Source: Candidatus Parcubacteria bacterium
GTDB lineage: Bacteria > Patescibacteriota > Minisyncoccia > UBA6257 > 2-01-FULL-56-20
Reading direction: 5' to 3'
Length of the DNA: 64,000 bases
Assembly: GCA_027450205.1 (NCBI GenBank)
Contig: DAIDJL010000002.1
Coordinates: 205,007 to 269,006, forward strand
Below the pieces are notes generated by a model, which searched no databases, was not told the origin of the DNA, and saw nothing but the letters and a program-made list of their open reading frames with translations. The translations under genes were made by a program, and so were the position numbers. Each line of letters begins with the position of its first letter. Position 1 is the first letter of the stretch. Below are positions 1 through 62,115 of this stretch, piece after piece.

Positions 1-163
1 CGGCCGTGATTTTATCAGTATCATTTTGCGCATCACTGAATTCAATCTTATCCCCAATATTTAAAAGCTTTCTTTTTTCGTCATAAAGACGACACTCAAT
101 GATTTTTGTGCCATTTTTAATCTTCTGGAAATATTCGGTTGCAAGTTTCATTGAGTGAATCAT
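1..163 (-). CDS. ASCH-domain protein (partial, C-terminus outside window)
   Basis: Reverse translation from ATG (revcomp of 161-163) gives MIHSMKLATEYFQKIKNGTKIIECRLYDEKRKLLNIGDKIEF..., ASCH-like; ORF runs off the window start. Confidence 0.45.
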   Translation of the reverse strand, partial: MIHSMKLATEYFQKIKNGTKIIECRLYDEKRKLLNIGDKIEFSDAQNDTDKITA

Positions 164-292
164 ATTAATCAAGTATAACAGTTGGTTCTACTATCATCTA
201 CTTGTAGTGTCAGGGCAAGTGGATACCGGTCGAACAAAAACGATTTTTGTCGATCTTCCGCAAGCCAACAAAACCAAGAGGTTCTACCCATA

Positions 293-427
293 CTAAGGGT
301 GTACTTTCTAGCCTGCGTTTTTACAGCATTAAAATCGATGAGCGGGTTAGTGGATGACGTCAGAACCTTTTTGATGGAAAAGCCCAGCAAATTTCACATT
401 TCAGATTTAATAAGCGAGAAATGTTGA
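293..427 (+). repeat. Conserved intergenic element, family 1 copy A (core GGATGACGTCAGAACCTTTTTGATGG)
   Basis: About 90 nt identical to 3188-3280, and the upstream roughly 45 nt is similar with paired substitutions. Followed by hairpin 438-461 (gaggctgg..ccagcctc). Confidence 0.7.
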
Positions 428-470
428 GATAAAATATGAGGCTGGAAATTAATCCAGCCTCCACAAGCAT

Positions 471-932
471 TCATGTTTTTGTCGGATCGGAGCATTCTTC
501 AGCATTCCTTGAAATCACGATGCCATATTGCTCCTTCATCAGCTCAAGGAAATTGCCTCCGGCCTCTTGCGCTACCGGACTGAAGTCTTCGTTATGCGTG
601 ATGGTGTAGACCGTACCGACGCACCATGCCCGCAGTACGGTAAGGGCAATTTCTAGGCGCGCGATATTGCCCGTGAAGCAGATGAACCGTCGCTTGCTTT
701 CCGGATTCTCGTGAATATGGATTGGCACATCCGGGTTGATCCTCTCCCACACCGGAGACGCCACAAGCTCTATTTCGTGATGGATTCCCCCGTGGAGTTT
801 GTTTTCAAACCCTAGGTAGAAAGCTGGATCGATCAACTGTTCTGACGGAGACTCGCTCCTGTGGATGCGAACGCGGAACGTATAGCTCTTGTCTCCCGCG
901 TCAATAACTACTATGCGATTTTGAGTTATCAC
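471..932 (-). CDS. hypothetical protein (153 aa)
   Basis: ORF with GTG start at 932, preceded by AAGGAG RBS at 8 nt spacing. Hairpin plus A/T run downstream at 438-461. Confidence 0.5.
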   Translation of the reverse strand: MITQNRIVVIDAGDKSYTFRVRIHRSESPSEQLIDPAFYLGFENKLHGGIHHEIELVASPVWERINPDVPIHIHENPESKRRFICFTGNIARLEIALTVLRAWCVGTVYTITHNEDFSPVAQEAGGNFLELMKEQYGIVISRNAEECSDPTKT

Positions 933-1042
933 GTCCTGCGCTCCTTCTTATGTGCCGTGCAAACAATAACACTTTACAATCCATCCGTCAAATGTTAGAA
1001 TGTGGGCGGATCCTAATAATCCAAAACGAAAGGAGGTGGCAC

Positions 1043-1612
1043 GTGAAAATCCAAGTCCGCTGGCCTAAGGAAAGCAACGTTTCACCCGATGACCTGATTA
1101 TCAGTTACTACAAGCCAGAATTCGTGTATGTCCACGAAAGGCTTTGGGCGGTGAACCTCAAGGTTTCCACGGTGCATGAGGCCTTGTTACACAGTTCATC
1201 CGTCATTTGGAAGATTCTAGAAGAAGGAGACCGCGTTCCGGGTCACCGCCCGTACGCAGTACGATCCTTCATCTCCGACGGCGAAAGCGATGAAGCCCTC
1301 GAGTTTCTGAACGAGTTCCTCACCTTGTACGACGGGAGAACTGGATATCTCGACGAAGCGATGAAGCAGGCGATCAACGACATCCAGCTAATCCCAGGCC
1401 CATTCTCGGACAAACATATCGGGTGGATTCGTCACGACCTGACTAATTGCCTGACGTTCGGAACCGAAGTCACACGCACCACCGGTGGGCAGTTTCGGAA
1501 GACGTCCATGCCGAAAACCCCCCAGCCGCATATCCGGCTCGTTTGGATTCGTGGTGAGCCACGTAAAGAGAGGAAGCTGTATACGAGAAAATCAAAAGCC
1601 GGTTCCACGTAA
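1043..1612 (+). CDS. hypothetical protein
   Basis: GTG at 1043 preceded by AGGAGG (1031-1036) at 6 nt spacing. Divergent from 471..932. Longer ORF-track start at 950 lacks an RBS. Confidence 0.5.
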   Translation: MKIQVRWPKESNVSPDDLIISYYKPEFVYVHERLWAVNLKVSTVHEALLHSSSVIWKILEEGDRVPGHRPYAVRSFISDGESDEALEFLNEFLTLYDGRTGYLDEAMKQAINDIQLIPGPFSDKHIGWIRHDLTNCLTFGTEVTRTTGGQFRKTSMPKTPQPHIRLVWIRGEPRKERKLYTRKSKAGST

Positions 1613-1784
1613 GGAGGAACGGGTCGAAGACTAACAAGTGCCTGATGCTAATCTCATTAGGCGCTTTTTTATCCGAATATCATCCATCCACCCCTAAGCC
1701 CCAACAAAATTCCACTCGGGCAAAAATAGCATTAACAGAATCGAATCTTTTTTAAAATCTATCCACCGGAAGCCTCTTGTGTTT

Positions 1785-1880
1785 GAGCGGGCTAGTGGAT
1801 GATGTTAGAACCTGCTTTAGAGAAAGTGCCAGCCAATTTGCGATTCCTGATTTAATGGCCGAGAAATGCTGAGATAAAAG
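1785..1880 (+). repeat. Conserved intergenic element, family 1 copy B (diverged, about 80% to copy A)
   Basis: gagcgggctagtggatgatgttagaacc...gagaaatgctgagataaaag aligns along the full length of copy A. Followed by hairpin 1883-1906 and a T-run. Confidence 0.65.
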
Positions 1881-1930
1881 TTTGACCCACCTCTTGCGAA
1901 GTGGGTCTTTTGTGCGAGCAGCAGTCCGAT

Positions 1931-2233
1931 TCATTGTTCGGCAGATACGCCGTGACGCAAATGCTTTGCATGTTCGAACAACTCGTCCTCAGGCGGTGCA
2001 CCATGTCGTAGGTTTTTAACATGTTCGAACACAATGCTGTTCTGAGGAGTCGCAGGGACTTCCCTGTGAAAGAGGGCGACGCCGATGATGGGCTTGCGTA
2101 CTGGATCACACATACTGCATGGTATCCATAGAGGGAGCGACATCAGCATGAACGCTCCGACCATCCACAGGCACTTGAGCGAGGCGTTAAGAAATCGTTC
2201 CATTTCGGAACCTCCATATTTGAAGAGCTTCAA
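1931..2233 (-). CDS. small membrane protein with internal LFEH.K.LRHG repeat
   Basis: 100-aa ORF, hydrophobic segment, duplicated FEHVKNLRHG/FEHAKHLRHG motif. Confidence 0.3.
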   Translation of the reverse strand: MKLFKYGGSEMERFLNASLKCLWMVGAFMLMSLPLWIPCSMCDPVRKPIIGVALFHREVPATPQNSIVFEHVKNLRHGAPPEDELFEHAKHLRHGVSAEQ

Positions 2234-2340
2234 TACTTCGCCATTATAGCACTTTACAAATATATAGTCAAATGGTACTATATGCCAAGAACCACAACAA
2301 TGGGAGGGCTATCCCAAAATAGCAGAAATGGAGTTGTCAT

Positions 2341-2997
2341 ATGACGACGAAGAAGCAGCGTGTTGTCGCGGACGATGTCCTTGGTCAAATTTCACGGAGA
2401 ACCTGGGATTTACAAAGACGAGTGATGGAAGGAACACTAGACCCACAACAAGTGCTTAACTCTTTGCAGTCATTCGCCGAGGGGCACCCGGTTGTTCCAA
2501 CTGACGCACCGCCATTTATTCTTGGCCAGCGCGTTTATGAGATCGAGCAGCCGCCTAGCGGTGTCGGAATTCTTGCATTTGCCCAGAGTTCGCAATTCGA
2601 GGTCTATGGTGCCCATTTAGCGGATCAATGGCCGAAAACTCAACGGGTTCTCGACGCGAGCCAAACCAGCAAGGTGCGAGTTGCGTATTTTCAGCAAACT
2701 TTCATTGCTCGTACTGCATTCTCGATTGTCCAAGATAGTGGGATCGAATGCGCTGACGCATGGGAATTGGTTGCCTTCTGTAAGCAGTCAAGTTTCATTG
2801 CGGCACGCGATTTCGGATTCCATAGTCCCGTGAGGTTTGTTTCGGCAGTCGGAATAGAAACCGGCGATGACTTTTTGGGTGATAGGTATATCTATCTTGA
2901 GTCCAGCACCCACGCGAGGAAATGGGGATTCAATAACGGATGCGAAGGGGCATTTTTCAAGATCAATGCCGGTGATTACGTTCTTGTTCACGCTTAG
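2341..2997 (+). CDS. hypothetical protein (218 aa)
   Basis: ORF with GGAG RBS 6 nt upstream of ATG; no recognised domain. Confidence 0.5.
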   Translation: MTTKKQRVVADDVLGQISRRTWDLQRRVMEGTLDPQQVLNSLQSFAEGHPVVPTDAPPFILGQRVYEIEQPPSGVGILAFAQSSQFEVYGAHLADQWPKTQRVLDASQTSKVRVAYFQQTFIARTAFSIVQDSGIECADAWELVAFCKQSSFIAARDFGFHSPVRFVSAVGIETGDDFLGDRYIYLESSTHARKWGFNNGCEGAFFKINAGDYVLVHA

Positions 2998-3143
2998 CAC
3001 GTGGGCTACTCATCTGAGTAGTTAACATTCCAGGCAGTCTTTGCATTATGCGGAGGCTGCCTGATTTTTTTACCCAACCGCACTACTCACTATTGTTTAA
3101 AAGATATTCTGAGTATCGCCCGTAGGTAAATAGGTTCGACCCG

Positions 3144-3280
3144 CACTAAGGGTGCACGATCCAGCCCGCATGATTGCAGGCCTAAAATTTAGGAGCGGGT
3201 TAGTGGATGACGTCAGAACCTTTTTGATGGAAAAGCCCAGCAAATTTCACATTTCAGATTTAATAAGCGAGAAATGTTGA
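3144..3280 (+). repeat. Conserved intergenic element, family 1 copy C
   Basis: 3188-3280 identical to 338-427. Upstream part cactaagggtgcac...gcaggcctaaaattt aligns to copy A with paired changes. Followed by hairpin 3293-3323. Confidence 0.7.
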
Positions 3281-3340
3281 TCATTAAAAGAATGGGCAGC
3301 AACCTCGTAATGAGGTCGCTGCCCTTCCTAGGTAAAGTGC

Positions 3341-3856
3341 CTAGACGTCCGTCTTTGATTCTGCGAGATAATCCTTGAAACTTCCTCTTACACCGAAATG
3401 TGCTTCTGCGGCAAGGGAATGAGCATCCCAGAATATCCGCTTCAAGTCTTTGATGATATCTCCAAGGTTGATAAACTCGGCGAGAGTCACATCAGCGTCG
3501 AGGGAAGGTTGTTTTGCAAGCTGTGCTTGTTGTTCGCAAACTCCCCAGAGCCGACGAGCGCGACGGGTAAGTTCATCAGTGATTGCTGCCTGGATATAAC
3601 TGTTGTTAGCGGACATGGGCCAGCCGAACACCAATTCGAAGCGGCCGCGTATATCGTTCCACCGTCGACTTTCCATCTTGCGGATTGCCAGTGTGATCAT
3701 CGCCTCGATAATAACTACGATGGTGACGGCAAGAATCATATAGAGAACAAACCGACCAAAAGAGATTTTGTCGGCATAGAGGAGATAGGCACAATACATT
3801 CCGATTATGCCACTCACAATGCGTCCGGGCCATACAACCTTTTTATCCAGCACCAT
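3341..3856 (-). CDS. membrane protein (two TM helices plus cytoplasmic domain)
   Basis: ATG at 3856 with GGAGAG RBS; hydrophobic helices in the N-terminal third. Confidence 0.5.
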   Translation of the reverse strand: MVLDKKVVWPGRIVSGIIGMYCAYLLYADKISFGRFVLYMILAVTIVVIIEAMITLAIRKMESRRWNDIRGRFELVFGWPMSANNSYIQAAITDELTRRARRLWGVCEQQAQLAKQPSLDADVTLAEFINLGDIIKDLKRIFWDAHSLAAEAHFGVRGSFKDYLAESKTDV

Positions 3857-3980
3857 AACATCCTGCTTTCTCTCCGCTCTCCGGAGTTGTTGAAATTGTT
3901 CGGCTGCTCTACAGCGGAACTGCGCACATCATATCATTTGACAATCCATCCGTCAAGAGGTAGAATGTGGGCAGTCGTTC

Positions 3981-4241
3981 ATGAGGTTTGAAATGACATG
4001 TGGCATCGTTGTTCCTCGACAGGAAGAAATCGTGGGCCATCGTCAAGATGGCTATTCGGCGGAATGTATTCTCAAGTCGGGAAATCACTCTCGGCATGTG
4101 ATAAAAATGCCGGAGGGAAAATTCTTTGCGTGGGAAGATGATTGGGACTGCGATTGCTGCGCGCCTGACGAAGACGATCGTTGTTATTGTTTTTGGGAAA
4201 TAAGCGAACAGGAGGCAATCAATCTCGGTGCCTCTTTGTGA
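3981..4241 (+). CDS. small Cys-rich acidic protein
   Basis: 86-aa ORF with CDCC..C.C cluster; weak support. Confidence 0.3.
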   Translation: MRFEMTCGIVVPRQEEIVGHRQDGYSAECILKSGNHSRHVIKMPEGKFFAWEDDWDCDCCAPDEDDRCYCFWEISEQEAINLGASL

Positions 4242-4517
4242 GCCTCGCGCTTCGGTGCGGGGCTTTTCTTATTTAAATATTGCGACGGCGATTGATACAA
4301 ATAAAGCAAGTATTGAAATCGCAAGTGTTACTAGGGAAAGATTTTTTTGGAAGCCTAGGGCGTAGCGATTTATCTCAAGCTGTAGCCGATTTGAGTGATA
4401 CAGCCAAAGGCGACACTTCGTGCATTCAGCAACTCCTGGGCCGCTTCGCTGATCGTAAGAAACTACCCTCCAATCGTGATCGCAATCAATTTGACGATCA
4501 GCCATGATTATCGGTCG

Positions 4518-4892
4518 CTAGCTAGTAGTCTTCGATTTCAAATCAATCATAAAGAGCTTGCCGAACTGAGGATCTTCTATCTCTATTGGAGAATATTTCC
4601 CCGCATATTTATTTAGATCTATGGAGTAGGCCTCAATGAATGACCACGCAGAAAAATATGCGCCTTTTTCATCTGCGCGTTTTTTCAATCTGAAAGTCCC
4701 GTCGGTTTCTTGCTCTAAGAGCTTGATGCCGATTTTCTGTTCGGCCTTGTCGAAGTAAAGTTTTACAGCGGCATATCGGTCAATTTCATATCGATGATGC
4801 ATGCCGGAGCTCAAACCAAAACCGCCAGATTTGTTGATGCTTACCTGGGGAGTGAATTTCCCTTTTCTCTTAGTGAATTCTTCAAAAGCCAT
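4518..4892 (-). CDS. hypothetical protein (124 aa)
   Basis: ORF; start next to an AT-rich region with TAATAAT near the ATG (possibly leaderless). Confidence 0.4.
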   Translation of the reverse strand: MAFEEFTKRKGKFTPQVSINKSGGFGLSSGMHHRYEIDRYAAVKLYFDKAEQKIGIKLLEQETDGTFRLKKRADEKGAYFSAWSFIEAYSIDLNKYAGKYSPIEIEDPQFGKLFMIDLKSKTTS

Positions 4893-4979
4893 TGTAAGAA
4901 TTATTAGTTTTTTTGTGTGAATACCTAGGGTTGTGGTATCCTAGGAAACATTCTAAACTTAAAGGGTGTGGATAAATTA

Positions 4980-5008
4980 TTGACAGTCAGTCCATTTTCA
5001 TTTAAAAT
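4980..5008 (+). promoter_or_regulatory. sigma70-type promoter (TTGACA-17-TAAAAT)
   Basis: TTGACA 4980-4985, 17 nt spacer, TAAAAT 5003-5008. Predicted TSS about 5016, right at the start of the long stem. Confidence 0.5.
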
Positions 5009-5016
5009 CTGTTCCT

Positions 5017-5140
5017 GAGCTTAGAAGCTCAATCTTGTGCCCGGCAGGGGGGACGATCCCCTTTTCCATAGTTCAAGGCTATGTGTCCTACCCACCGTAG
5101 ACGAGCCGGGCATAAGATTGAGTTTCTAAGCTCTTTTTTG
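5017..5140 (+). ncRNA. candidate small structured RNA (29-bp closing stem, three internal hairpins, U-tract end); alternatively a MITE-like element
   Basis: Arms 5017-5045 and 5105-5133 are reverse complements with two C-to-T changes that give G.U pairs. Inner hairpins ggggg/cccc and catag/ctatg. T6 at 5134-5139. No ORF. Confidence 0.35.
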
Positions 5141-5469
5141 ATATTCTTAGGGAAGTATACCATAAAATTCTAGCAAGTAATACCCCCAGAGATTTACCCT
5201 ATCTGATAATATCAAATGGTATCCGCTTGTCAAATGTCTGTTTTCTCACAGCATTTTGCTATGCAAATTGAATATGTGTCTAAGATACGATAAGTTTACT
5301 GCTTTATATTTTAAACATCTGTTCAATTTAATTCGGCGTTTATTCTTCAAATTCACGTGTTAATTTCCGAGTTCTTCCCCGCCTTTGTGCAATCTATCAT
5401 TTCAACCAGCGGACAGGGCAGAGACGGGTATAGGCGAAAAGAACCGCAGATTCACGTTTTATGCGGGGA

Positions 5470-5499
5470 TTGACAGATAAGCCAATTAAGGTGTATAAT
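5470..5499 (+). promoter_or_regulatory. sigma70 promoter (TTGACA-18-TATAAT) with a 110 nt leader containing a 9-bp hairpin
   Basis: Consensus hexamers at 5470-5475 and 5494-5499. Leader hairpin ggccgtagcc/ggctacggc at 5528-5574. AAGGAG RBS before ATG 5617. Confidence 0.55.
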
Positions 5500-5616
5500 A
5501 TAGTTGTTCTTTGAAATGGCGAATAATGGCCGTAGCCAAAAGGCATTGGAATGTCGATGCTTTCTGGCTACGGCTACGGATAGTAGTCCCTCTGGCAGAA
5601 AAAAGGAGAAAACACC

Positions 5617-6294
5617 ATGGCTAACACGGTGAAGACCTTTGATCGTCAGACCGCGCGGTTCCTTGCGGTCATCGCTGAAAACCTTCCGGAAATGCCTGCA
5701 GTATGTATGCAGATTTGGAGCGAACAACCCAAGCGAATCCAGGAAGTCTTACTAAAGGCTTTCGAGCCTCTTGTCCGCATCCCCCTGTGGTGGCACGAGA
5801 CAGTGAAGCCGGTCGTTCACGATGCCCGGAGTTGGAAAGAAGTGTTGCTGCAGCGCGGATTCACGATCAGTGATGAAGCACAAGCGATGCTTGAGAACGT
5901 TCTGCTCGTCCCGTTTCCCGAGACGGAGTACACTCAGGCCAGCGCGCATTCTTTCGGGTACGGCTTCGACGAGAAAAATCCACCTTCTCGCGCCGACTAT
6001 TACCGACGTGCGAAGATGTTGGGGCTCGAGCCAATTTCAGTTCAGGCGGCTCTCCAAGTTCTTCTGGAGGATCGCTACTCCAATCCCCCGAAGAATAATC
6101 TCAAGAAATTCCCTGAGCAGATTATCTTCGTTCTTGGGACAGAGCCCATCTCTGTCATCGACAAGGACGGCGCGACAACGAAGAAACTGTTTGTGTTCGA
6201 AAATTATGGCGGGCACAATTCGCTTCACGCCATGGATGTCGAGAGCAACAAGTTCCTTTATACACTCCTTGCCATACACAAGGATGAGCAGTAA
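5617..6294 (+). CDS. hypothetical protein (225 aa)
   Basis: Strong promoter plus RBS; ORF followed by a hairpin and T-run near 6330-6360. Confidence 0.6.
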   Translation: MANTVKTFDRQTARFLAVIAENLPEMPAVCMQIWSEQPKRIQEVLLKAFEPLVRIPLWWHETVKPVVHDARSWKEVLLQRGFTISDEAQAMLENVLLVPFPETEYTQASAHSFGYGFDEKNPPSRADYYRRAKMLGLEPISVQAALQVLLEDRYSNPPKNNLKKFPEQIIFVLGTEPISVIDKDGATTKKLFVFENYGGHNSLHAMDVESNKFLYTLLAIHKDEQ

Positions 6295-6775
6295 ACCATC
6301 AACCCATTATCGAAAAAGAGGAAAACCCTCTGCTTCGGTAGTGGGTTTTCTCTTTTTTATAATCCGGCCCCACAGTGCCACTCACTATATCTCCCCTGCA
6401 GACAATAGTGAGCGAGATGGGAGGGTCTTTAGAATTTCTTTACGAAATCTTTAACTTTTCTTTACCGCGAGGGCTACCAAATAAGCGTCCGCTTTGCTAT
6501 TTCCTCAATACTGTCCGCGAGCGGGTCGAACGTATAGCTCGCGCTTTTCTGCGGATTCTTGCGTATCGCGTATGGCGAGACAGGAAGGTTGTGGGCTGAA
6601 CGGATGTATTGGTCTACCCATATCATGCTCCGGCCATTTGCGTAAAAGCTTTTTTCAATTGAAAGATATTGTTCAGCTTCATTGATATCGATTGGGGTTC
6701 TCATGGGGTTTGGGTATCTTATATAATTACATTTTATGCATAAGTGTCGATGTTTTGTGCTGCCAAGGCCCACGT

Positions 6776-7240
6776 CTAAAGCATCCCTCTTTTTTTGATA
6801 TCCTTCCACCCGTGCTTTACCACGTTGCCATTTCGGTCGACGGAAAAGATGTATAGGCCAAGTCGTTTCGCTGCTTGCCATGGAATCCTGCGCAATGCGA
6901 TAGTTGCCGATGTTTCTGGCATTGCAATCCCGTAGTAGTTCGGCTCGAACGTCGTCATCCTCGTAACAATCTGGCCAAGGACGGCAACAAACGAACCATC
7001 ATCAGCGGAGCTTGCGTAGTGTGCTGACGAACCGCCTTTCACTTCGACTACAAAGTAGCGGGTATGCGGTGGTCTGCTGCTTCGGACGCGGATATCGACC
7101 CCTTTCTGATGGAGCGCAACCCTGCGGAGGTTATAGCCGAACCCATTGCGGAACAGCCAGTCCACCATTCTGTCGCCGACGAATTGCTCGGATTTTTTGT
7201 AATCCGCATGACGTACTCTTTTCGCTTTTGATTTTGCCAT
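6776..7240 (-). CDS. putative PD-(D/E)xK nuclease-fold protein
   Basis: 154 aa; motif GVDIRVRS...YFVVEVKGG resembles the D...(D/E)xK restriction-endonuclease-like core. Confidence 0.35.
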   Translation of the reverse strand: MAKSKAKRVRHADYKKSEQFVGDRMVDWLFRNGFGYNLRRVALHQKGVDIRVRSSRPPHTRYFVVEVKGGSSAHYASSADDGSFVAVLGQIVTRMTTFEPNYYGIAMPETSATIALRRIPWQAAKRLGLYIFSVDRNGNVVKHGWKDIKKRGML

Positions 7241-7245
7241 AGTTG

Positions 7246-7578
7246 TTAAAGACTAAGACAGAAGGTTGTTGGACTTCCACATGAGGCCTGCGGCGCGGGA
7301 GTCTCCCACGAGACGCCATTTGGCAGAGTGCTGGAAGTGAATATGGTGCCACTATTGGTATTGTCGGATGGATCTTCTAGCGTCGCTGCTAATACGTAGA
7401 CTGTTCCGCTCGCATCGGTGGCGTATGTATAATGGCGACCTTGGCTAGCTAGTGGATCGTTAGGGATGGTAATGCTGGAGAAATTACCGCCCGCGTTCGT
7501 TATCTTAGTTTGCAAATCCTGCCACGAGGTGATGCCGGTCGGGTACTGATTGTATTGGTTGTAATACACCTCAAGCAC
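7246..7578 (-). pseudogene. type IV pilin-like protein lacking the N-terminal signal and hydrophobic helix (probable remnant)
   Basis: R.A..DL.....L..YY...N.YP motif typical of pilins. In-frame upstream sequence runs into tRNA-Gly with no start codon or hydrophobic helix. GTG start only. Confidence 0.3.
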
Positions 7579-7717
7579 GGTTTGGGTCGTTAGAAGGTCG
7601 TTAATCCGCTGTGCGTCTCTTGCCCCCGTCGAGCAGGAAGTGGCAAGGTTCGAACACGGAGAAACACCTGATGAATCAGGCGGCCTAGAAGGATTCCATG
7701 AAATAAGTCCTAACTTG

Positions 7718-7788
7718 AGCGGGTAACGGGAGTCGAACCCGTGACTTCACCTTGGAAGGGTGACGTAATACCGTTATACAATACCCGC
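7718..7788 (-). tRNA. tRNA-Gly (anticodon TCC)
   Basis: Manual fold: acceptor GCGGGTA/TACCCGC, anticodon loop CTTCCAA, T-arm ACGGG-TTCGACT-CCCGT, discriminator T. CCA not encoded. Confidence 0.8.
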
Positions 7789-7860
7789 GGTATTTGCAGC
7801 ACGCATTGCGCTATCTGCGTGATTTAATCTACCATTCTTGCTTGCTTTTTTCAATCATTT

Positions 7861-8484
7861 TTGCTACAAATAGGTAATCCGAATATGTCCAAATTCTCGC
7901 GTCGCACCAAGATCATTGCGGCTTTCATCATACTCGTGGCGCTGGGATATGGGCTTGCCATCTTTTGGCAATCGCAGAACAAGGTGCCGGCGGACTTCAC
8001 CGCGGCACGGCTTCAGGGGGCGATCATCGCGCAGACGATCGTCAATACATCCAATCAGTCCACTGCGGCGCTCGAACAGATAAATAAATACGATCAGCAG
8101 GGCAATTATACCGCCGCGCTCGCTTCAACGACGGACCTTATCAATCAGAGCGCGGGGTTGCGCGACGAAGCGGTGCAGTTGTCCGCGCAGGTGAGCCAGA
8201 TGACGAAGGATCTCTCGAGTATCAACTCCGGCGCCGCACAGCAGGCGGCATTGGAATCCATTTCGAGCCGTCTTGCGCTCATCAACGAGCTTATCACGTA
8301 CAGCAACGATCTCGACCGCCTCCTCACCGTTCTCCAGGCGCGGTTTAGCGGCACGCTCGAACCGAATGGCGTCGTGCAGGGATTGGTGAACCAGATCAAT
8401 ACCGATGTGAATGCGATCAACAATTTCAATGCGCAGGCCGGGCAGGCGATGGATAAATTTGATTCGATAGAGAAGGGAAATTAA
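7861..8484 (+). CDS. membrane-anchored coiled-coil protein
   Basis: N-terminal TM (IIAAFIILVALGYGLAIFW), Q/A/L-rich helical remainder. Probable start at ATG 7885. Terminator-like hairpin plus T-run follows. Confidence 0.5.
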   Translation: MLQIGNPNMSKFSRRTKIIAAFIILVALGYGLAIFWQSQNKVPADFTAARLQGAIIAQTIVNTSNQSTAALEQINKYDQQGNYTAALASTTDLINQSAGLRDEAVQLSAQVSQMTKDLSSINSGAAQQAALESISSRLALINELITYSNDLDRLLTVLQARFSGTLEPNGVVQGLVNQINTDVNAINNFNAQAGQAMDKFDSIEKGN

Positions 8485-8729
8485 TAAAGAAGCTTCTTGT
8501 ATTTCTTCTTTTTTTAGGCGGCGGCGCGCAGCGTTCCGGCTTGCTGGCTGGCCGCCTCGGCGCTCGCCACTCACCACCCTGTGGCTCCGTAGCGCCCTTC
8601 AAAACATAAGAACATCCTTCTTTACTTCCCTCCGTCAATCTTTTATTCTGAACCAGTGGATGCGTTTGTAGCTCAGCGATAGCGTTGCTTCTCAAGGCAA
8701 CGGGATAAAGAATAGAAACGCAGCATTCA

Positions 8730-45903: not shown

Positions 45904-46195
45904 GCAGGCGCTACACTTAACCCATAACTGAATATGATGGGGCGCAAGCCTCGGAGCCTAAACCTTCACCGGCATGGCTCATAAGACTCAAACCAGAATA
46001 CTGAACCCCGCGTTCAGCAACTCTGGTTTGAGCCGTACTGGGAAACTGGTACGGGACCGAAAGGTCTAGCTGACACGGGGTTCAGTGTTATTTCTTTCCG
46101 TGTCGGCTATCAAAGGCCGGCATTTTTGTTTATCAATTCGTGATCAAAATCAATCACAGAAAGAAAATTAAGGAGGATAGAAAATAACCAATACT

Positions 46196-59329: not shown

Positions 59330-59979
59330 CGACGAAAAGAATAGTAGCGAAAATGGGCGCACTTTGCAATCGGCAAGAATTTTTATCCCCAGAAGAGTGT
59401 GGGTTATGCACAGCTTTTTCAGAAATATCATCTATAATGAATTTAGGCATTTTAATTTTTGATCAAACAAGCGGGGAGGCTGAATCATGACCGGTGTTTT
59501 GGTTACTGTGGAATGTGGGGGGAGATGCGGGCACGTTGCGAACATCCCTGGCAGTGCGGCTTGCGACCTGTTTCTCGAGAATGGAAAGAGAGATCCAGAT
59601 CGGCTGGTTCTCTGCGTCGACTGTCAGATATGGTTTGCGACGATGGTGGCTTGGGCCACTCCGAGCAGAATTAGCGAGCCAGTGCCGCTTGCAACGATCG
59701 AAAAATGATTCGCGACGTCTAGGTGGCGTTCGCGGGGCCCCGATTTTTTCGGGGCCTCTTTCTCGGGAAACAGTAACAGGATCGCCTTCTTGGACAATCC
59801 TGTTTTTGATCTGTCGGGCCGCAGGGAATTGGACCCTGTCTACCTGCTCCCAAAGCAGGCGTACTACCGGTATACGACGGCCCGTTATACATCGGCGCAT
59901 CACGCGCCGCACAAGCCTCTTTAAAGTATCCTACTTTTGGTTTAGAATCAATGCGACGAAAGCAATTCGTGCGATCCAT

Positions 59980-60071: not shown

Positions 60072-60105
60072 AAAAATAGAGCAATGGTCCAGCCATGCTC
60101 TATTT
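60072..60105. terminator. bidirectional terminator hairpin between convergent tRNA genes
   Basis: aaaaatagagca-atggtccagcca-tgctctattttt; A-run on one side and T-run on the other. Confidence 0.55.
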
Positions 60106-60115
60106 TTACAAACTG

Positions 60116-60215: not shown

Positions 60216-61312
60216 TTATTTCTTCGTTTTCAAAGTGATGCGCTTCTCTTCCTGTTTGACGGTGTCGATGACGAACGGATAGCTCTCGCCGATGGTGAGC
60301 GCTTTCTTCATCTCATCCTGGCCGCCGAATTCGGAGATGTGCACCATGCCCTGGAGGTCGCCATCAAGCGCGACCACTGCGCCGAACGGATTGAACTTAT
60401 ATACCTTGCCCTGGACGGTTTCGCCCGGCTTGAAGAGTTCGCCGGCTTTGACCCATGGATCTTCCTTGAGCGCCTTGAGAGAAAGGAAAACGCGGCCCTC
60501 TTTAATATCAATGATCTTCGCTTTGAGCGGATCGTTTACCTTAACGAGTTCCTTCGGGTTATCGATCAATTTGTAATCGAGCTCGGAGATGTGGATCATG
60601 CCCTCGATCTGCGGGTTATCGGTAAAGCGGACGAACACGCCGAAATCCGCGGTGCCGGATACCATGCAGTCCACTATCTGGCCGATCGTATACGCGTTGA
60701 GCAGTTCTTTGACGTTTGCCGAGAGCACTTCGCGCTCGGAGACGATCACTTTATTCGTGCGCGGATTGACGTCGATGATCTTGACGTTCAGTTCCTGCCC
60801 GACGAACTTTTTCAGCTCTTCGGCGATCTTGATGCGGTCGCCGTCCGGAACTTTCGGATAGTGCTCGAGTGAAAGCTGTGAGACGGGAAGGAACGCCTTG
60901 AGATCGTCCGCGACGACGGTCATGAGCCCGCCCGCGTTCGCGCCGGCGATTTTTGCCTTGATGACCTCGCCGGACTCGGCGAGGTCCTTTGCGAGCTGCC
61001 AGAGCTTCTGCTTGCCGGCTTCGGAGAGCGAAAGCTCGATATTGCCTTCTTCGCCGTCAAGCGCGACGATCTTTGCCTGGAGCGAATCGCCGGGCTTGAG
61101 AGCACGCAATGCCTCGCGCGCATTCGCGATCTCCACGCCGAACACGATGCCGGTGCCAAAGCGGCCCATGTCAAAATAGGCTTTGCGGGGGAGTTTCTTT
61201 AAGAGCGTGACCTCGACGACGCTGCCCTCTTTCGGCCAGTCGGTGGTGGAGATCTCCGTCTTGATGGCCGCCGCGACCGCGGAAGCCTTTGGTTCTTCTG
61301 TTTGTGGCATGA
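60216..61312 (-). CDS. rpsA: 30S ribosomal protein S1 (four S1 domains)
   Basis: Repeated S1-domain motifs (G.V......G.FV....GL.H.S.); start MPQTEEP at 61312. Track ORF extends to 61538 only because the upstream palindrome has no stop codons. Confidence 0.85.
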
Positions 61313-61334
61313 GGATGATTATATCAGCGATTTC

Positions 61335-61463
61335 CGCTTTTGCAAGAGCAGGGCACATCTTTCGAAAGGACGGCGTTCCGGTCTGCTGACCGGCCGCCTT
61401 GGCGCTCGGCACCTTCATGCCTCCGCGGCACCTTTCAAAAGATGTGCCCTGCTCTTGCAAAAG
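61335..61463. repeat. 34-bp near-perfect inverted repeat (one mismatch) around a 61-nt spacer holding a smaller hairpin
   Basis: Arm 61335-61368 gcttttgcaagagcagggcacatctttcgaaagg vs arm 61430-61463 cctttcaaaagatgtgccctgctcttgcaaaagc. Inner ccggtc-tgc-tgaccgg. Confidence 0.85.
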
Positions 61464-61527
61464 CGAAGACCTTCTACATATTTTGGGCTGGAATTTTGCT
61501 TCGGTTTCTGCTAAAATATATCCATAT

Positions 61528-62115
61528 ATGGTCATCAACTACTTCGGAAACGGCTGTTTTCGTTTGCAAAGCGGAGACACTTCCGTGCTCGTGAATCCCG
61601 AGAACAACAGGCTTAAGGCAGATGTGACGCTAAAGACCCTTACGGCGACCGTGCCTGATGCGGCGGCAGCCGGCGACGGTGAGAAGGGCGACGAGGTTGT
61701 GATTTCTTTTGCGGGCGAGTACGAAGAAAAGGAGATCGAGATTCTGGGATTTAGCGTACCGGAAGAGTCGACGGATAAATTTTTGAAGACGGCCTATGCG
61801 GTGTTGTGGGAAGGGATGAAGTTCGTGTTCCTCGGCCATCTTTCCAAGCCGATCGACGCGGCGCTGATGGAGGAATTCTCGGAGCCGGATGTGCTGTTCC
61901 TGCCGGTGGGCGGCGGTCACTTTCTGGAGCCGGAGGTCGCGGCGAAGATCGCGAAGCAGCTCGAGGCGCGCGTCGTGATCCCGAGCTTCTATAAAACACC
62001 GGCGGAATTTTTGAAGGCCTCCGGCAAAAAGGGCGAGGAGATGGAAAAATTCGTCTTTAAACAGAAGGATATCGCCGGCGATCGCGGCCGTGTGGTGATC
62101 CTGAACGCAATCTAA
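61528..62115 (+). CDS. MBL-fold-like metal-dependent hydrolase family protein
   Basis: Start MVINYFGNGCFRL 10 nt after a TAAAAT -10; fold-family pattern ...VLFLPVGGGHF...; low specificity. Confidence 0.45.
   Translation: MVINYFGNGCFRLQSGDTSVLVNPENNRLKADVTLKTLTATVPDAAAAGDGEKGDEVVISFAGEYEEKEIEILGFSVPEESTDKFLKTAYAVLWEGMKFVFLGHLSKPIDAALMEEFSEPDVLFLPVGGGHFLEPEVAAKIAKQLEARVVIPSFYKTPAEFLKASGKKGEEMEKFVFKQKDIAGDRGRVVILNAI

Follow-up and report, generated by a model that had tools for sequence, protein, structure and literature searches.

A conserved three-way-junction core on locus-specific hairpin stems, dispersed in Patescibacteria and present upstream of rpsA

The long inverted repeat upstream of rpsA is one copy of a dispersed family of Patescibacteria, found in MAGs of Paceibacteria, Parcubacteria and Minisyncoccia. 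The conserved unit of this family is the interior of the palindrome, where two covarying hairpins and an inner stem of about 10 bp form a three-way junction. The long outer stem is locus-specific sequence that is nearly perfectly paired. The core is usually found on a hairpin that follows immediately on a stop codon or on a tRNA or tmRNA 3' end, and relatives bear ordinary short hairpins where hairpins capped by the core occur. In the window (the whole stretch of DNA analyzed, 64,000 nucleotides), the element sits between two divergent, essentially leaderless promoters, and the rpsA -35 hexamer lies inside one of its arms. The family is apparently undescribed and has no Rfam family. The features are listed here with their coordinates in the window, except for the last line, and with the basis of each assignment.

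60216 to 61310, minus strand: rpsA, encoding a short ribosomal protein S1 that has S1 domains and 364 aa (homologues, promoter)
61318 to 61345, minus strand: rpsA promoter, predicted, sigma-70 type (promoter search, relatives)
61335 to 61369, no strand assigned: rpsA-proximal arm of the 35-bp stem (repeat search, promoter, relatives)
61370 to 61430, minus strand: conserved 61-nt core, forming a three-way junction with the stem (covariance model R1)
61372 to 61398, minus strand: hairpin B of the core (alignment, covariation)
61403 to 61427, minus strand: hairpin A of the core (alignment, covariation)
61431 to 61465, no strand assigned: distal arm, the reverse complement of the proximal arm save for A61437 (repeat search, relatives)
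61509 to 62115, plus strand: divergent metallo-beta-lactamase (MBL)-fold gene with its ATG at 61528 (ORF, domain assignment)
8485 to 8624, minus strand: second, degenerate copy of the family (R1 match at 8504 to 8613, 36.8 bits)
Other loci: composite copies at L011 4437 to 4752 and L077 874 to 1466, and also in L013, L093, L094, L107, L123, L081 and L141

A repeat search of the window placed the two arms at 61335 to 61369 and 61431 to 61465, each 35 nt long and separated by a spacer of 61 nt. They are complementary at 34 of 35 positions (97%); the sole mismatch, C61363 against A61437 on the plus strand, is a G.U pair on the minus strand, and the closing stem accordingly counts 34 Watson-Crick pairs and one G.U pair. 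The first-pass annotation had described a near-perfect 34-bp inverted repeat, which is real and 1 to 2 bases longer than it had claimed, and the further 6-bp hairpin that it had seen in the interior is present as well (CCGGTC/GACCGG, 61378 to 61383 and 61388 to 61393). No inverted repeat elsewhere in the 64 kb reaches this length within 400 nt. Further copies of the 34-mer, which the same annotation had proposed to look for, do not occur in the window: with up to three mismatches allowed, the two arms are the only occurrences of the 35-mer, and the pair was reproduced in 0 of 100 shuffles. RNA folding of 241 nt gave -110 kcal/mol, with z about -9 for either strand against shuffles, and DNA folding of the 131-nt element gave -59 to -60 kcal/mol (z -12 to -14 against shuffles) on both strands alike. 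The rpsA-proximal arm is a composite of three parts. Its outer part, CGCTTTTGCAAG, includes the rpsA -35 hexamer, its middle 13 nt are found in this genome alone, and its inner 10 nt (the CTTTCGAAAGG region) correspond to the semi-conserved inner stem of the family. Because the distal arm is the reverse complement of the proximal one, it bears a mirrored copy of the -35, for which there is no conserved partner -10.

The rpsA promoter on the minus strand is the only sigma-70-type promoter detected in 61000 to 61800. It consists of the -35 TTGCAA (61345 to 61340), a 16-nt spacer with TG and the -10 TATAAT (61323 to 61318; TGnTATAAT), which lies 7 nt from the ATG. We compared 67 related rpsA loci, drawn from MAGs of Patescibacteria that are labelled Paceibacterota, Parcubacteria or Minisyncoccia; more than 25 related genomes retain the block CTTGCAAAAGCGG...TATAAT-N7/8-ATG, whether or not they have the repeat, and most of them do not. 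As this conserved promoter ends 7 nt before the ATG and a Shine-Dalgarno sequence is absent, rpsA is predicted to be leaderless, and the arrangement implies an rpsA mRNA that begins, by its predicted start site, at or next to the coding sequence. The palindrome is upstream of, and overlaps, the -35 and therefore falls outside the transcript from the predicted rpsA promoter. Homologues and the promoter together place the true start of rpsA at the ATG 61310 to 61308 (MPQTEEP...). The ORF 60216 to 61538 (440 aa) runs across the repeat and has 76 spurious N-terminal codons, which bears out the spurious extension of 75 codons suspected earlier. On the other side, the divergent MBL-fold gene has a putative extended -10, TGCTAAAAT, at 61509 to 61517, read from the sequence 10 nt before the ATG. 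Both genes have their -10 boxes 7 to 10 nt from the ATG and lack a Shine-Dalgarno sequence, and the spacing TATAAT-N7/8-ATG across more than 25 genomes points to leaderless S1 translation in the clade.

When the intergenic region was searched by BLAST against related loci, the matches covered the interior together with the inner stem; the matched interiors lie upstream of rpsA and elsewhere in relatives, with different arms. Hairpin A has the minus-strand sequence CGC-GGA-GGCAU-GAAG-GUGCC-GA-GCG. Its consensus in the family, CUC-GGA-stem-GAAG-stem-GA-GAG, includes a tandem G.A type internal loop between two stems that both covary. Hairpin B reads GGCG-G-CCGGUC-AGCA-GACCGG-AA-CGCC in the window and takes the form GGCG-G-6 bp-AGCA-6 bp-AA-CGCC in the family, where all pairs of the 6-bp stem covary. 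The inner stem is semi-conserved, with the variants TTTTGAAAGG/CCTTTCAAAA or TTTGAGGGG/ACCCGAAA. An alignment of nine copies has compensatory changes at 23 of 33 pairs.

The covariance model R1 was constructed from 9 seed copies on the minus strand (the rpsA sense) and located 143 copies in total, 2 in the window, 15 in related Paceibacteria genomes and 126 in metagenomes. The first 17 come from a scan of the window and the rpsA loci. The metagenome loci (peat, soil, groundwater) were retrieved by a pattern of the core and then scanned with R1, which found 81 copies in 80 loci and then 45 in the remaining 40 loci. The rpsA-upstream copy scores 100.4 bits (E 5e-28, full length 1-96, 61354 to 61448, minus strand), a score that is partly given by construction because this copy is among the nine seed sequences; the 134 non-seed copies match R1 independently. 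In the 81-copy alignment, 94.7% of the cells are paired, both-side changes occur at 31 of 32 pairs and covariation scores 0.682, compared with 0.172 for shuffles (0/500); slid controls on the same alignment reach at most 51.5% paired. The unbiased set of 17 copies behaves in the same way (91.9% paired, both-side changes at 26 of 32 pairs). The retrieval pattern fixed CTCGGARSC, GAGAG, CAGCAG and AC, so the invariance of these letters in the metagenome set is by construction; among the 31 copies that were not chosen via the pattern, CAGCAG is kept in 20 and CGGA in 22.

The second copy in the window, at 8485 to 8624, has an enlarged hairpin A and decayed arms; it lies at the 3' end of a plus-strand ORF and 106 nt from tRNA-Ile(tat). 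Other degenerate copies are found in loci L031, L003 and L021. None of the families of Rfam 15 matches, be it in the window at the gathering threshold, in the locus at E<=10 or in 20 related loci at E<=0.1 to 1; the best signals are sub-threshold microRNA precursors (mir-266, 40 bits against a gathering score of 80), as is usual for long hairpins. A search of 2.9 million viral contigs with the core pattern gave no match, and full-text literature searches returned no account of such an element in Patescibacteria. We also considered a tRNA-like interior, which was called neither by ARAGORN nor by the Rfam tRNA model.

The outer stems are long and nearly free of mispairs. Their arms have a median length of 26.5 nt in the first 98 copies and 27 nt in the next 45; most measure about 15 to 40 nt, with two outliers of 55 and 79 nt, and 42 of the first 98 copies have perfect arms. 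Arm pairs in the first set are 2343 Watson-Crick, 52 G.U, 31 A.C and 26 other, and in the second set 1135, 14, 12 and 6. Arm sequences are unrelated between loci, to the extent that identical 69-nt cores carry unrelated arms. Genomes with an rpsA-upstream copy share the inner stem and the outer section of the arm, which is promoter sequence; the middle 12 to 18 nt are unalignable between genomes and unequal in length, still perfectly paired, in genomes that differ at only about 0.3 of rpsA 4-fold sites. The divergence of these mid-arms would be due either to replacement or to concerted change of unusual speed. The median stem of coreless 3'-end hairpins in these loci measures 12 bp, against about 27 bp for the capped ones, and such hairpins are equally poor in G.U. 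We also asked whether arms resemble spacer-like phage matches. For two arms, the 16-mers had 1 and 12 matches in viral contigs, no more than a rough chance estimate predicts (the size of the viral collection is not stated), and the one match examined (window arm, L188) does not extend past the 16-mer.

A gene 3' end lies no more than 30 nt from the start of the hairpin in 48 of the first 98 copies and in 25 of the next 45; such hairpins often take in the stop codon or have the tRNA discriminator base as their first position. In both sets, most host genes are antisense to R1 (38:6, p about 1e-6, and 19:2, p about 2e-4; 57:8 together). Where the kind of host was tallied, 16 of 61 are tRNA or tmRNA genes, and the 382 flanking ORFs that were clustered are of the housekeeping kind (fusA in five loci, rpsA, release factor, L11, S13, SSB). 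The window copy adjoins no gene 3' end and lies between two gene starts, as do the orthologous rpsA-upstream copies except that in L096, whose arm is preceded at a distance of 8 nt by the end of a co-directional ORF. A comparison of rpsA upstream regions in relatives, which the first-pass annotation had recommended, thus gives the promoter block in more than 25 genomes and the same element, with different arms, in at least 10 other genomes and metagenome contigs. Its suggestion of a recent inverted duplication does not agree with an element that occupies the same site in all of these with arms that all differ.

Sites with and without the core can be compared directly at three places. Downstream of rpsA, a short A/T-tract hairpin, AAATAAAAATGGCCC-TTTG-GGGCTATTTTT, is present in L038 and L003, and its outer arms recur in L009, L012 and L021, where they enclose the core. 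The trailer hairpin of tRNA-Arg(tct) is plain in the window (60072 to 60107) and capped in L011, L013 and L006; in the window it is an ordinary A-tract/T-tract hairpin between the convergent tRNA-Arg(tct) and tRNA-Phe. At the third place, upstream of rpsA, the -35 box of L012 is covered by a coreless 14-bp palindrome with a TGCG loop, and other genomes have long coreless hairpins at this position, in the 150 nt before the gene (31-bp arms in L045, 26- to 30-bp arms in L035 and L018). A canonical terminator was rejected as a description of the family, as only about 29% of the capped hairpins at gene ends have a U-tract, no gene ends at the window copy and no U-tract is present there. There are 0 terminator-like sites in 61000 to 61800, with at most 2 to 3 T per 8-nt window at either tail, and for these reasons the label "terminator" is not established.

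Pairs of cores from one contig are no more alike than pairs from different contigs (the two window copies are 64% identical), which disfavors recent transposition and suggests that the copies are old residents, each keeping its fold by compensatory change. No transposase or integrase family recurs beside the copies among the 382 clustered flanking ORFs, and no target duplication is visible around solo copies, the window copy included. Identical cores with unrelated arms occur in samples from related sites, and closely related genomes have different core subtypes at the rpsA site; together, these observations point to occasional copying. Copies linked to tRNA or tmRNA genes have a composite order, namely the RNA gene, the capped hairpin, a T-loop complement, a second structured core and a direct repeat, which is an exact copy of 12 to 18 nt of the 3' end of the RNA gene. 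The second core is conserved, comes in two types and has no Rfam match. Such a composite looks like an insertion with target duplication or like a direct-inverted-direct product of template switching. The idea of a small palindromic mobile element, raised in the first-pass annotation, therefore holds in part: there is a dispersed palindromic family of 143 copies, but the interior is conserved rather than the arms, copies on the same contig are old and divergent, and neither a transposase nor a target duplication of solo copies was seen.

The R1-sense strand has the tandem G.A type internal loop and purine loops (GAAG, C-AGCA-G), and in its arms G.U pairs outnumber A.C pairs (66 to 43). The host transcripts carry R1 in antisense, and there the unpaired residues are pyrimidine loops (CUGCUG, CUUC, UC/UCC). 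GC skew in the R1 sense is negative in 49 of 69 loci; a replication-strand rule was nevertheless discarded, as the ratio is only 49:20 and the rpsA loci themselves contradict the rule. No rule based on transcription or on replication accommodates all copies. We also discarded the scarcity of G.U as proof of DNA folding, because the coreless 3'-end hairpins have the same composition.

Why would a conserved fold sit on stems of free sequence? We tentatively favor the reading that the core is a self-folding insert at the tip of transcription-barrier hairpins, located in the window between divergent promoters. The core would have been copied into the tips of pre-existing barrier hairpins, and as it folds on itself it would let the long stem close, such that the insert persists, tolerated or kept; the longer stems of hairpins with the core (about 27 vs 12 bp) would compensate for the large loop. 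At the window locus, the element would provide at most a factor-independent block to transcription from either divergent promoter. What the sequences show directly is the family, its fold, its position and the promoter geometry; a barrier role, a way of copying and a possible benefit to the host are what we infer. Several observations sit uneasily with tip insertion. The neighbors are housekeeping genes with no recurring transposase or integrase, solo copies lack a target duplication, copies on the same contig are not more alike, a U-tract accompanies only a minority of the copies at gene ends and is missing here, and compensatory conservation across 41 to 78% GC suits a host function at least equally. 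Moreover, tip insertion leaves unexplained why the strand of the host transcript lacks the RNA-like purine loops and the tandem G.A. It is conceivable, but on balance improbable, that the core spreads without an encoded transposase via template switching during replication, building or extending palindromes from adjacent sequence, a process of which the direct-inverted-direct copies of tRNA and tmRNA 3' ends would be the footprint. A host function is an alternative that is likewise unlikely: the core may instead be a cis-acting RNA module in the sense of the host gene, a Patescibacteria-wide cap that binds a protein or protects the 3' end on the terminal hairpins of highly expressed RNAs. The orientation bias toward the host gene in two independent sets, the covariation together with conserved unpaired letters, the old copies that evolve independently within contigs, the enrichment of tRNA/tmRNA and translation genes among the hosts and the single orientation of all rpsA-upstream copies all speak for such a module; its loops in the host sense are, however, pyrimidines without a recognizable RNA motif, and the window copy has neither an adjoining gene 3' end nor a detected promoter reading through it, so that the rpsA-upstream copy would have to belong to a divergent or upstream transcript.

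Readings that place the function on DNA or on the opposite strand have less in their favor than tip insertion. A DNA-level structure, either a cruciform with a three-way junction per strand or one strand folded as single-stranded DNA, is a rather remote alternative. In the window it would absorb negative supercoils between the divergent promoters and hide the rpsA -35 when extruded, and in a variant it would be the recognition site of a single-strand-specific enzyme that also spreads the element. Helices that are almost purely Watson-Crick on both strands, the equal folding of both strands as DNA, the -35 in one arm with a mirrored copy that has no evident function, the prevailing negative GC skew, and the direct and inverted target duplications of the tRNA/tmRNA-linked copies are consistent with it, but the Watson-Crick argument is weak because coreless 3'-end hairpins are equally poor in G.U, extrusion from duplex DNA would be slow because of the 61-bp spacer, no replication or transcription rule fits all copies and no enzyme was identified. 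A shade more remote is a small RNA gene whose R1-sense strand would be transcribed and cut in the stem by RNase III to release an RNA of about 70 to 90 nt acting in trans. RNase III cleaves long double-stranded stems of about 20 bp or more. Stems of 25 to 40 bp suit the enzyme, and the purine loops, the tandem G.A type loop and the excess of G.U over A.C are all on that strand; against this, we found no -10-like hexamer at a constant distance upstream in either orientation among 77 copies, the strand is antisense to the adjacent gene in most copies and has no Rfam relative, and at rpsA the 3' arm holds the -35 of the next promoter with no terminator after it. By its length, the window helix would qualify as a putative RNase III substrate; as a site on the rpsA mRNA, which the first-pass annotation had in mind, it falls outside the transcript from the predicted promoter. 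The same geometry bears on the wider proposal that the repeat is an rpsA 5' leader helix for S1 autoregulation or RNase III processing, a proposal that we regard as very improbable. It draws on the proximity to rpsA, the helix length and the constant orientation to rpsA in all orthologous copies. However, the -35 of the window copy lies within an arm, and the promoter ends 7 to 8 nt from the ATG in more than 25 genomes, many without the element, which puts the repeat outside the mRNA from the predicted start site and leaves no predicted 5' UTR in which an S1 operator could reside, and the same family also follows fusA, tRNAs, tmRNA and many other genes. Least credible of all is an invertible promoter switch, with arms that serve as recombinase sites to flip the 61-bp interior. 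Inverted repeats do flank a short segment between divergent genes, but the interior is itself the conserved fold and contains no promoter, the rpsA-upstream copies all point the same way, arms that differ between loci provide no common recombinase site, and both orientations of the interior were not seen at any one locus.

Among known systems, the REP, BIME and REPIN elements of Enterobacteria and Pseudomonas are dispersed intergenic hairpin repeats, typically after gene 3' ends and with orientation preferences. They are present in many long-lived copies per genome and have been proposed to stabilize transcript ends, to terminate transcription or to act as binding sites at the DNA level. REP sequences conserve the stem itself, whereas the family described here conserves the apical three-way junction on a locus-specific stem; a conserved palindromic stem is thus lacking, and no RAYT-type gene was seen among the ORFs flanking the copies. 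The Correia elements (CREE or NEMIS) of Neisseria are palindromes of about 100 to 150 bp next to genes, which may overlap or supply promoter hexamers, form long transcript hairpins cut by RNase III and have 26-bp terminal inverted repeats and a TA target duplication. In our family semi-conservation is limited to about the inner 10 bp, the outer arms bear no relation to one another between loci and the -35 is older than the element; terminal repeats, as in Correia elements and other MITEs, are not conserved between copies even where the cores are identical. Intrinsic bidirectional terminators share with the family the sites that they occupy in relatives and near-pure Watson-Crick stems, but the stem of the family is about twice as long, its "loop" is a structured 61 nt and a U-tract is present in only about 29% of the copies at gene ends.

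The attC sites of integrons have conserved R/L (R''/R') boxes at the base of the stem, a variable center and extrahelical bases, and occur in cassette arrays with an integrase alongside. Our family resembles them in keeping structure while sequence is free, in its position at ORF 3' ends and in being orientation specific, and differs in its variable base, conserved center, perfect stems and housekeeping hosts; no motif is conserved at the stem base, and the copies flank rpsA, fusA, tRNAs and the like. Organelles offer another parallel, as the GC clusters of yeast mitochondria are hairpin-forming repeats. We know of no organelle repeat described as having a conserved three-way-junction core on locus-specific stems. 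The organelle repeats and our family are both small self-folding elements that colonize intergenic regions without an encoded enzyme; their sequences and hosts are unrelated. Repetitive hairpin-forming elements of organelle genomes are the subject of a published account (PMC2800124). The translational operator of E. coli rpsA also adjoins rpsA, but it is a 5' UTR structure, and none is predicted here.

Patescibacteria have tiny genomes with little non-coding DNA, yet in the loci examined there is about one copy per 25 to 30 kb of an element of 110 to 150 nt, often beside the most highly expressed genes (rpsA, fusA, tRNAs, tmRNA). Dispersed intergenic hairpin repeats are a known feature of bacteria; what differs here is the inverted architecture, in which the tip is conserved and covarying and the perfectly paired stem is free, the opposite of the classical repeats of bacteria. 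A functional element would mark an unrecognized step in how transcript ends form, or in DNA topology, within a major lineage that is uncultured; a selfish one would be DNA that spreads by residence inside terminator hairpins. In either case it affects annotation, by giving false N-terminal extensions (76 codons on rpsA, for example) and by misleading calls of leaders, terminators and tRNA-like genes in such MAGs.

The window holds a few further features. About 480 nt between tRNA-Val and tRNA-Pro (59330 to 59812) contain no convincing ORF and no Rfam match at E<=1, and their folding exceeds that of shuffles by only a modest margin (z -2.8). At 5017 to 5133, within AT-rich non-coding DNA (4893 to 5450), a 29-nt inverted repeat (93%) encloses a tRNA-Gln(ttg) called by ARAGORN at 5037 to 5111 on the minus strand, a cloverleaf with an aberrant T loop that the Rfam tRNA model does not report at E<=1. 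The geometry of this palindrome is like that of the rpsA element (a long stem with a structured interior of about 60 nt), and its core is unrelated. Positions 1 to 8000, which contain the tRNA-like palindrome and end just before the degenerate copy at 8485 to 8624, have a G+C content of 0.45 to 0.49, compared with mostly 0.52 to 0.58 elsewhere and dips to 0.48 to 0.50 at about 24 to 28 kb and 50 to 56 kb. Finally, a LOOT RNA (RF03000) is present at 45955 to 46067 on the plus strand, with 70.7 bits against a gathering score of 46.4.
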